64,000 nucleotides of DNA, from NCBI RefSeq assembly GCF_003018115.1, contig NZ_CP027457.1; one strand, 5' to 3'. Shown here in pieces: positions 13,337-13,648 of this stretch. The translations under genes were made by a program, and so were the position numbers. Under the pieces are notes generated by a model that was not told the DNA's origin, ran no database searches, and worked only from the letters and a program-made list of their open reading frames with translations. The stretch comes from Escherichia coli. GTDB lineage: Bacteria; Pseudomonadota; Gammaproteobacteria; Enterobacterales; Enterobacteriaceae. The first letter of the stretch is position 1. Each line of letters begins with the position of its first letter.

Positions 13337-13648
13337 AAAAAAACTCCCTGTTGAAGGATGGAAATTGGTTGATATCTAATTGTGCTTATCAGTGCTTTGT
13401 GCGACAAATTGGTTAACCTGTCTGACAACTTGTCTATGTTTATCACAACTTGAAATAAAGTCAGAAATTAAATATTAAATTTGTGCGCCAGGTTGTACAT
13501 GTTTATAATCAATAAATGACGAGTAAATATTCACTATATATATATAATAAATATCGTCGATATTTATTCAGTAAGAAATATATTTTGCCGAAGTTAATTA
13601 ACGGGGGGGGGGAAGAAGTGATTAATGCGCCCGCAGACGCATTAATGA
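13337..13648 (-). promoter_or_regulatory. AT-rich leader/promoter region of the TRAP operon with (TA)6, G10 homopolymer and 9-bp inverted repeat
   Basis: tatatatatata at 13535-13546; ten consecutive G at 13603-13612; attaatgcg-N8-cgcattaat at 13621-13646. Confidence 0.45.

Follow-up and report, generated by a model that had tools for sequence, protein, structure and literature searches.

Simple-sequence contingency loci, as described in Neisseria, Haemophilus, Campylobacter and Bordetella, carry homopolymer or (TA)n tracts within promoters or reading frames, and the fimbrial promoter of Haemophilus influenzae is one that is controlled by a (TA)n run. To our knowledge, E. coli is not an organism noted for loci of this kind. 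The main text of a survey of Escherichia homopolymers (PMC8928963) makes no mention of the locus described here. With respect to transport, the D-glucuronate TRAP system STM3169-STM3171 of Salmonella Typhimurium is a described counterpart, and a Salmonella TRAP binding protein of the same family binds D-glucuronate with a KD of ~0.2 uM (PMC7660916). In E. coli K-12, operators resembling AAATTGGTnnACCAATTT or AAGTTGTnnGACAAGTT lie upstream of uxuA, gntP, uxuR, uxaC, exuT, exuR and uxaB, as recognised by their recurrence upstream of these known regulon genes rather than from a curated site list. Individual boxes read AAAGTTGTATGACAAGTTA upstream of exuT (preceded by TGTGATGGCTCTCAC), AAAGTTATCACACCAATTT upstream of uxaC, AAAGTGGTATAACAAATAT upstream of exuR, GTGGTTAACCAATTT upstream of uxuA, AAATTGGTCAACCATT upstream of gntP and ATTTGGTTGACCAG upstream of uxuR.

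The locus considered here is a 312-bp gap (13337-13648) between hemW and the TRAP binding-protein gene dctP, located in the window, the 64-kb stretch of E. coli DNA that was analysed as a whole. The hemW gene (13649-14785, - strand; delimited from the ORF list, the RefSeq annotation of an identical strain and comparison of its 3' end) encodes a radical SAM heme chaperone and is the final gene of the string yggS-yggT-yggU-rdgB-hemW. On the same strand lies the TRAP operon (10501-13336), comprised of dctP (12350-13336), dctQ (11802-12314, with a RefSeq start corresponding to 12305) and dctM (10501-11802), and yggM is convergent beyond the TRAP genes. RefSeq places the same boundaries on the identical strain for hemW, the TRAP substrate-binding protein, the small permease, the large permease and yggM. 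An earlier note on this DNA had called the gap very AT-rich and had pointed out a (TA)6 run at 13535-13546, a G10 run at 13603-13612 and the inverted repeat attaatgcg-N8-cgcattaat at 13621-13646; each lies exactly where it was placed, and the gap has 32.7% GC compared to 51.2% across the whole window. The G10 run is the sole G/C run of at least 7 within the 64 kb, where the next longest is 6 and a random-base model would predict 0.12 runs of at least 10, and (TA)6 is likewise the sole (TA) run of at least four units.

This leader is carried by 1476 of 5426 complete E. coli genomes (27%), and its interpretation as a repeated or mobile element was rejected, as nearly all carriers have one copy per genome. 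When 13000-14000 was scanned against Rfam with a permissive cut-off, the outcome was a chance match to a eukaryotic lncRNA and no known riboswitch or small RNA. No small ORF in the leader has a start context or conservation, the G tract lies in no conserved ORF by the same check, and a 72-aa ORF on the + strand that spans both repeats was rejected since it runs antisense into hemW. The RNA fold of the whole leader gave z = -1.8, with the C tract taking part in no structure. Literature searches pairing TRAP with yggM or yggW, or ExuR/UxuR with TRAP, found nothing on the present locus, and the one match was to another TRAP locus (ygiQ..ftsP) in strain BEN2908.

The G tract is a hypervariable homopolymer. 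What appears as G10 on the + strand is C10 when read in the direction of hemW and dctP, and there it follows straight after the hairpin tail. A 91-nt query that spans the tract found 515 genomes with long-allele flanks, 70 of them exact matches (G10). In an even sample of 60 among the 515, the inferred lengths were G9 to G15, alongside a 95-nt class and a single collapse to G4. Sequences fetched from these genomes resolved the long-allele length classes G4, G9, G10, G11, G12, G13 and G15, while the 95-nt class was G7AG6 in all four sequenced members and of the same length in all 12 that were sampled. The other 976 carrier genomes have short alleles that sort into discrete classes, with G7TTAAAA found exactly in 339 genomes and G6TAAAA also common; one locus (L061) represents an independent expansion, G11TAAAA with an intact T-tail. 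Complete genomes and metagenome assemblies together hold lengths of 4, 6, 7, 9, 10, 11, 12, 13 and 15 along with G7AG6 and G8AG6. Sequence-checked length differences fall nearly all inside the G run. The exception is strain GF54, in which a G12 run is followed by 28 extra nt (AA + C26), which may reflect a quasi-palindromic template-switch expansion or else an artefact of assembly. A single, otherwise identical 352-nt flank haplotype carries five alleles (G4, G10, G15, G7AG6 and G8AG6), and because alleles thus differ on identical flanks, the tract evolves faster than anything else at the locus. Longer uninterrupted runs are less stable, the pattern that replication slippage would produce. The earlier note had proposed a slipped-strand site and an alignment across strains to see whether the length is invariant; the alignment shows that it varies across assembled isolates, and the range of lengths and interrupted forms across complete genomes and independently assembled metagenomes bears the proposal out.

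Runs of ten or more G are error-prone on all sequencing platforms, and the fine-scale spread of lengths may be partly technical, given errors of ~1 base at homopolymers in long-read assemblies. One-base differences between related strains are within the size of assembly error, and the G12-AA-C26 of GF54 is implausible as assembled. That homopolymer miscalling should account for the apparent variation as such is nevertheless decidedly unlikely, as the lengths range from 4 to 15, the alleles also differ by lineage-coherent substitutions (G7AG6, G6TAAAA, G7TTAAAA), the interrupted allele keeps a constant length in 12 of 12 sampled genomes, and G6, G7, G9, G10, G13 and G8AG6 recur in independent metagenome assemblies. 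Tabulated by allele, the 25 independent metagenome contigs that carry the locus comprise 15 with G6TAAAA, three with G7TAAAA, and one each with G9TAAAA, G6ATAAAA, G7ATAAAA, G7ATAAAAT, G8AG6, G10 and G13.

Two strains have alterations on the dctP side of the tract. Strain 504838, which bears G7AG6, has a dctP annotated as a frameshifted pseudogene, and strain A30 has two IS1 copies where the TRAP operon and the yggM-ansB region would be, with just 91 bp of the hemW-side leader left, G12 included, and glcC/yghO now adjoining.

The inverted repeat does abut the hemW stop at the coordinates first given for it, although in RNA it forms an 11-bp stem with a 4-nt loop rather than 9 bp around N8. The stem-loop, AUUAAUGCGUC-UGCG-GGCGCAUUAAU (13621-13646, - strand), contains one G-U pair, begins 2 nt past the hemW stop codon (TAA, 13649-13651, - strand) and folds with -14.5 to -15.2 kcal/mol (z = -3.1 against shuffles). 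Position 13637 is A in 11 of 29 Escherichia leader haplotypes and G in the other 18, where the G-U pair is converted to G-C and pairing is maintained. Most of 21 orthologous leaders from other genera have a hairpin after the hemW stop, and the hairpin sequences are unrelated from genus to genus save for Citrobacter, which has a homologous GCGCC-TGCG-GGCGC stem and then a T-rich tail. A stable, GC-containing stem-loop directly after a final stop codon is one of the two features looked for in an intrinsic terminator, and the inverted repeat is thus the predicted terminator hairpin of hemW.

The second feature, at least five T in the eight nucleotides right 3' of the stem, is present in Citrobacter and in short-allele E. 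coli (CACTTCTTTT) and is lacking in the window (CACTTCTTCCCC). Short alleles continue as CACUUCUUUUA(A/U), and in two of them (L011 and L060) a terminator was called, ATTAATGCGCCTGCGGGCGCATTAAT + CACTTCTTTT, with one found against 0.1-0.2 expected. The scan of the window called none: the tail there is CACTTCTT followed by C10, and the remnant at 13613-13620 (- strand) reads CACUUCUU. The coding strand after the hairpin reads CACTTCTTTTATCCCCCGCG in Escherichia sp. MOD1-EC7003, CACTTCTTTTA(A)C6-7 in common E. coli alleles and CACTTCTT then C(n) in the window class, and an alignment of orthologous leaders has neither a C run nor a (TA) run at the aligned position in any other genus. The three tail readings suggest that a short C run beside the terminator tail expanded and, in one class, replaced part of the T-tail; in the allele class of the window, the tract has apparently overwritten half of it.

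This arrangement invites a reading in which read-through of the hemW terminator into the TRAP leader depends on how long the C tract is and where it lies, by erosion of the U-tail or through a poly-C loading site for Rho, with heritable, reversible variation in hexuronate uptake as the outcome. The tract indeed falls right at the terminator tail; the long allele goes uncalled as a terminator where short alleles are called; no other feature of the locus changes as quickly; long tracts persist in ~515 genomes; and the scan called no further terminator between hemW and dctPQM, which point the same way. However, once the tail has been lost, changes from 9 to 15 bring no obvious extra effect on hairpin or tail; the G11 of L061 coexists with an intact T-tail, making expansion and tail loss separable; the operon has a conserved promoter module of its own that reads as regulated; and the tract is missing from all other genera that keep the operon. 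Tuning of this kind is the foremost alternative to a tract that lacks any dedicated function, if on the whole unlikely. It is quite unlikely that the poly-C run is a true contingency element in the full sense, working over the U-tail, and perhaps by Rho loading, as a heritable and reversible control of read-through into a glucuronate/galacturonate TRAP operon.

Beyond the tract, the distal half of the leader holds the (TA)6 repeat (13535-13546; 4-6 units among strains) and a perfect 23-bp palindrome (13546-13568) that the earlier reader had missed, AATAAATATCG-N1-CGATATTTATT (11+11). The palindrome is specific to Escherichia, and it is imperfect in L003 and in MOD1-EC7003. It was rejected as a regulator site, since it is not conserved beyond E. 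coli, carries mutations in some strains and has been lost from NCTC9064; this last strain has a 27-nt deletion between AAATAT direct repeats (~13548-13574) and an intact dctP. The G tract, (TA)n and the palindrome all fall in the unconserved, polymorphic half of the leader, where the majority-base frequency among genera is 0.26-0.57 (13501-13648) compared to a peak of 0.82 for 13391-13450 and a return to high values around the ribosome-binding site. Escherichia leaders differ from one another at 7 positions in 13337-13500, compared to more than 25 in 13501-13648.

A promoter-like match, TCGACG and TATAGT separated by 16 nt (13560 down to 13533, - strand), does bear the (TA) run in its spacer, and were it the true promoter, a change between (TA)5 and (TA)6 would shift that spacer from 14 to 16 nt and could vary expression by phase, in the manner of the H. 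influenzae fimbrial promoter. It is the sole such match on the - strand of the leader, (TA)5 alleles exist, and the E. coli version of the -10 conserved in other genera is degenerate. The match is weak, however, scoring 9/12, a chance level in AT-rich DNA (2 found in the leader against 1.8 expected); it is missing from the common TAAATATATA allele, as represented by L011 and L060; the region is unconserved outside Escherichia; and NCTC9064 has lost the palindrome that contains the -35 with its TRAP operon intact. Phase variation by (TA)n is accordingly very unlikely.

The conserved part of the leader lies toward dctP. Predicted control boxes, which the earlier reader had also missed, occupy 13398-13447, ~155-215 bp from the G tract, within a module (13391-13450) that is nearly invariant within E. 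coli. A CRP-like site, TGTGA-N6-TAGAC (13432-13447, - strand), was recognised from the alignment and the K-12 exuT region, and its TGTGA half is kept across genera. Next to it is an ExuR-type box (13419-13431, - strand), AAGTTGTCAGACA, which matches the exuT-adjacent AAGTTGTATGACA of K-12 and takes the form TGTCnGACAAC in other genera. It adjoins a UxuR/ExuR-type half operator (13406-13418, + strand), AAATTGGTTAACC, which reproduces the K-12 uxuA box exactly over its 13-nt core, such that a uxuA-type and an exuT-like 13-mer stand side by side. A second TGT-N3-ACA box (13398-13406, - strand) reads TGTCGCACA, lies 21 bp from the first and is TGTCATACA in other genera. Each of the two 13-mers occurs once within the 64-kb window, where 0.02 occurrences of AAGTTGTCAGACA and, with one mismatch allowed, 0.08 of AAATTGGTTAACC are expected by chance. 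Other genera have the common module TGTGA-N-TTAAAG(A/T)TGTCnGACAAC-N-GATAATATGTCATACAG, and that of the window reads TGTGATAAACATAGACAAGTTGTCAGACAGGTTAACCAATTTGTCGCACAA. The alignment further reveals a conserved block (13482-13490, - strand), TGGCGCACA here and GCGCACAAAA in other genera, and a ribosome-binding site, GGGAG (13344-13348, - strand), 7 nt upstream of the dctP ATG and kept as GGAG in all genera. With AAATTGGTTAACC equal to the uxuA core and AAGTTGTCAGACA matching the exuT box, the window has the putative operators of an ExuR/UxuR-type promoter.

In other genera GATAAT is a good -10 candidate, and its use would put TGTGA near -40/-41, a class II-like arrangement. The E. coli equivalent is ACCAAT, with the CRP-like site 3 nt closer, and because the hexamer reads ACCAAT the position of the E. 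coli promoter is less certain; it may lie elsewhere, conceivably farther upstream. The suggestion that the segment is an indel-prone control region therefore stands in its two halves, as the leader has control elements and the tract is prone to indels, but not in their union, since the conserved module (13391-13450) is away from the tract.

The operon behind this module belongs, by its predicted products, to the DctPQM type, with a DctP-family binding protein and small and large membrane subunits encoded together. DctP and DctM match the TRAP models TIGR00787 and TIGR00786; the small permease has no NCBIfam match, is annotated as such by RefSeq and is kept in all orthologous loci. The nearest solved structures to the binding protein include 4N15 and 4MHF/4MIJ (E-values 1e-64 to 1e-68), which have been used or described as D-glucuronate or D-galacturonate binders (PMC7660916). 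In Aeromonas and Pantoea, orthologues at 60% identity are located between uxaC-uxaB and exuR, and these uxaC-uxaB/dctPQM/exuR clusters together with the solved relatives argue for a functional link of the operon to hexuronate use. The ligand assignment for the DctP of the window draws on the same study (PMC7660916) and on gene context. From the operator boxes and the CRP-like half-site, the transporter looks like a hexuronate TRAP under ExuR/UxuR control, and the best reading of the operon is a hexuronate uptake system governed by ExuR/UxuR and CRP.

The locus also appears to be old. The order rdgB-hemW-dctPQM, with a leader of ~293-315 nt, is found in at least nine enterobacterial genera, including Citrobacter, Klebsiella, Kluyvera, Pseudocitrobacter and Phytobacter, and the TRAP proteins of other genera are 84-93% identical to those of the window, a divergence similar to that of HemW and RdgB. 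In K-12 the hemW-yggM gap (L013, 5405-5558) holds 154 bp of palindromic units that resemble REP elements, such as GCCGGATGCGGCG, and no TRAP genes, and homology between the window and K-12 breaks 14 bp past the yggM stop and ~48 nt inside hemW. The final 48 nt of hemW (13649-13696, 16 codons) have 14 synonymous differences from K-12 and leave the protein unchanged, and the preceding 72 nt are identical. These breaks and the synonymous cluster suggest that TRAP+ and TRAP- haplotypes are old and have been exchanged by recombination, with a probable breakpoint inside hemW. The leader appears to be an original part of the TRAP haplotype.

The earlier note had alternatively suggested that the segment is the junction scar of a TRAP insertion, in other words debris left when a TRAP island entered between hemW and yggM. 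Its presence in just 27% of complete E. coli genomes, the low GC content of the TRAP genes (42-46% compared to 53% for hemW) and the breaks in K-12 homology near yggM and inside hemW would all fit such an event. Against it, the same order and leader length recur in the genera named above and in others, the TRAP genes have diverged much as HemW and RdgB have, and their low GC content is common to every genus. Furthermore, no integrase or transposase genes or flanking terminal repeats were seen at the 3.2-kb TRAP segment, the proximal leader has conserved regulatory boxes, and the empty site of K-12 is filled by REP elements, which suggests loss or replacement. The suggestion is largely refuted already, and we consider it extremely unlikely.

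Several related loci depart from this arrangement. The leader of C. amalonaticus is 527 nt long, and that of a Pluralibacter MAG is 1565 nt, with a 426-aa opposite-strand ORF inserted between hemW and dctP. Edwardsiella hoshinae and Buttiauxella have the same TRAP operon away from hemW (DctP 81-86% identical), with a divergent gene for a LysR-type regulator in the case of Edwardsiella. Three contigs labelled Collinsella, Bacillota and Alicyclobacillaceae carry a dctP that is 99-100% identical to that of E. coli, which probably reflects contamination of these assemblies with E. coli DNA.

Taken together, the gap is best explained as an old enterobacterial intergenic region that would consist of three modules, read on the - strand from hemW toward dctP. 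In the first, the hemW operon would end at the stem-loop, which, with the CACUUCUUUUA behind it in most E. coli carriers, scores as an intrinsic terminator. The second would be an AT-rich, weakly constrained, Escherichia-specific spacer of ~120 nt, in which a C5-C7 run right after the terminator tail probably expanded via replication slippage. In the window class, the C run would have replaced the tail UUA(A/U) and would since have drifted over ~9-15 nt, occasionally collapsing to 4, with a single interruption (G7AG6) presumably sufficient to freeze its length; (TA)n and the 23-bp palindrome of the same spacer seem dispensable too. The third module, the promoter-proximal half, would provide the TRAP operon with its CRP-like site and with ExuR/UxuR-type operators like those of exuT and uxuA, the most likely substrates for import are D-glucuronate and/or D-galacturonate, and the operon would be induced with the hexuronate regulon. 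Tract length would then be a by-product of mutation and not a switch, a weaker hemW terminator in long-allele strains being its sole plausible side effect. We assign a probability of about 0.6 to this reading of the tract, as a mutational hot spot in a weakly constrained spacer that most likely has no dedicated function and is neutral. A point against neutrality is that an entire allele class has kept a homopolymer of 9-15 nt, which drift would not obviously be expected to maintain, and selection on the persistence of long tracts is possible.

These findings identify a predicted terminator and a predicted hexuronate-type promoter for an uncharacterised TRAP transporter found in about a quarter of strains, with carriers that include ST131 and many Shiga-toxin-producing lineages, and they document a long G/C homopolymer, rare in E. 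coli, together with its allele spectrum. The tract is a caution for assembly and variant calling and possibly a fast-evolving typing marker. If its length does affect read-through, it would be an uncommon instance of repeat-mediated expression tuning in E. coli metabolism, and if it were a contingency element, scavenging of sugar acids would be diversified among gut clones.

Comparison with the described systems places the locus among several of them. With the contingency loci of Neisseria and the other genera, it shares a long G/C homopolymer and a dinucleotide repeat, and its G tract is indeed length-polymorphic among closely related, near-identical isolates. It differs from them in placement: the G tract is outside any conserved reading frame, is not between a credible -35 and -10 and is ~155-215 bp from the operator module, with no on/off length classes seen, and (TA)n occupies the spacer of a match at chance level, so that neither repeat lies where a switch would be placed. 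With the intrinsic terminators at the ends of enterobacterial operons, it shares a GC-topped stem-loop 2 nt past the final stop, a position kept across genera, and a tail rich in T, as found in Citrobacter and most of the E. coli alleles at this locus; unlike these, the tail of the window class, CACUUCUU then C10, falls short of the simple T-count for a predicted terminator.

The resemblance to the K-12 exuT, uxaCA and uxuAB promoters comprises the exact 13-nt uxuA match, the exuT-like AAGTTGTnnGACA box and the upstream TGTGA half-site, and here too the controlled operon encodes an uptake system of a hexuronate-binding TRAP clade. The spacing between CRP-like site and box differs from that of exuT; other genera carry TGTCnGACAAC and TGTCATACA and no uxuA-type sequence, in contrast to K-12 uxuA; and no regulator gene adjoins the present operon, whose sites are putative. 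Like STM3169-STM3171, the operon of the window has a DctP-type binding protein and stands alone as three genes away from catabolic genes. A search for close relatives of the window TRAP returned no Salmonella locus, and, judging from Salmonella gene order, STM3169-STM3171 is probably at a different chromosomal position. The two systems come together in their binding proteins, as STM3169 was modelled on 4N15 (PMC7660916), which is also among the best solved matches of the DctP described here.
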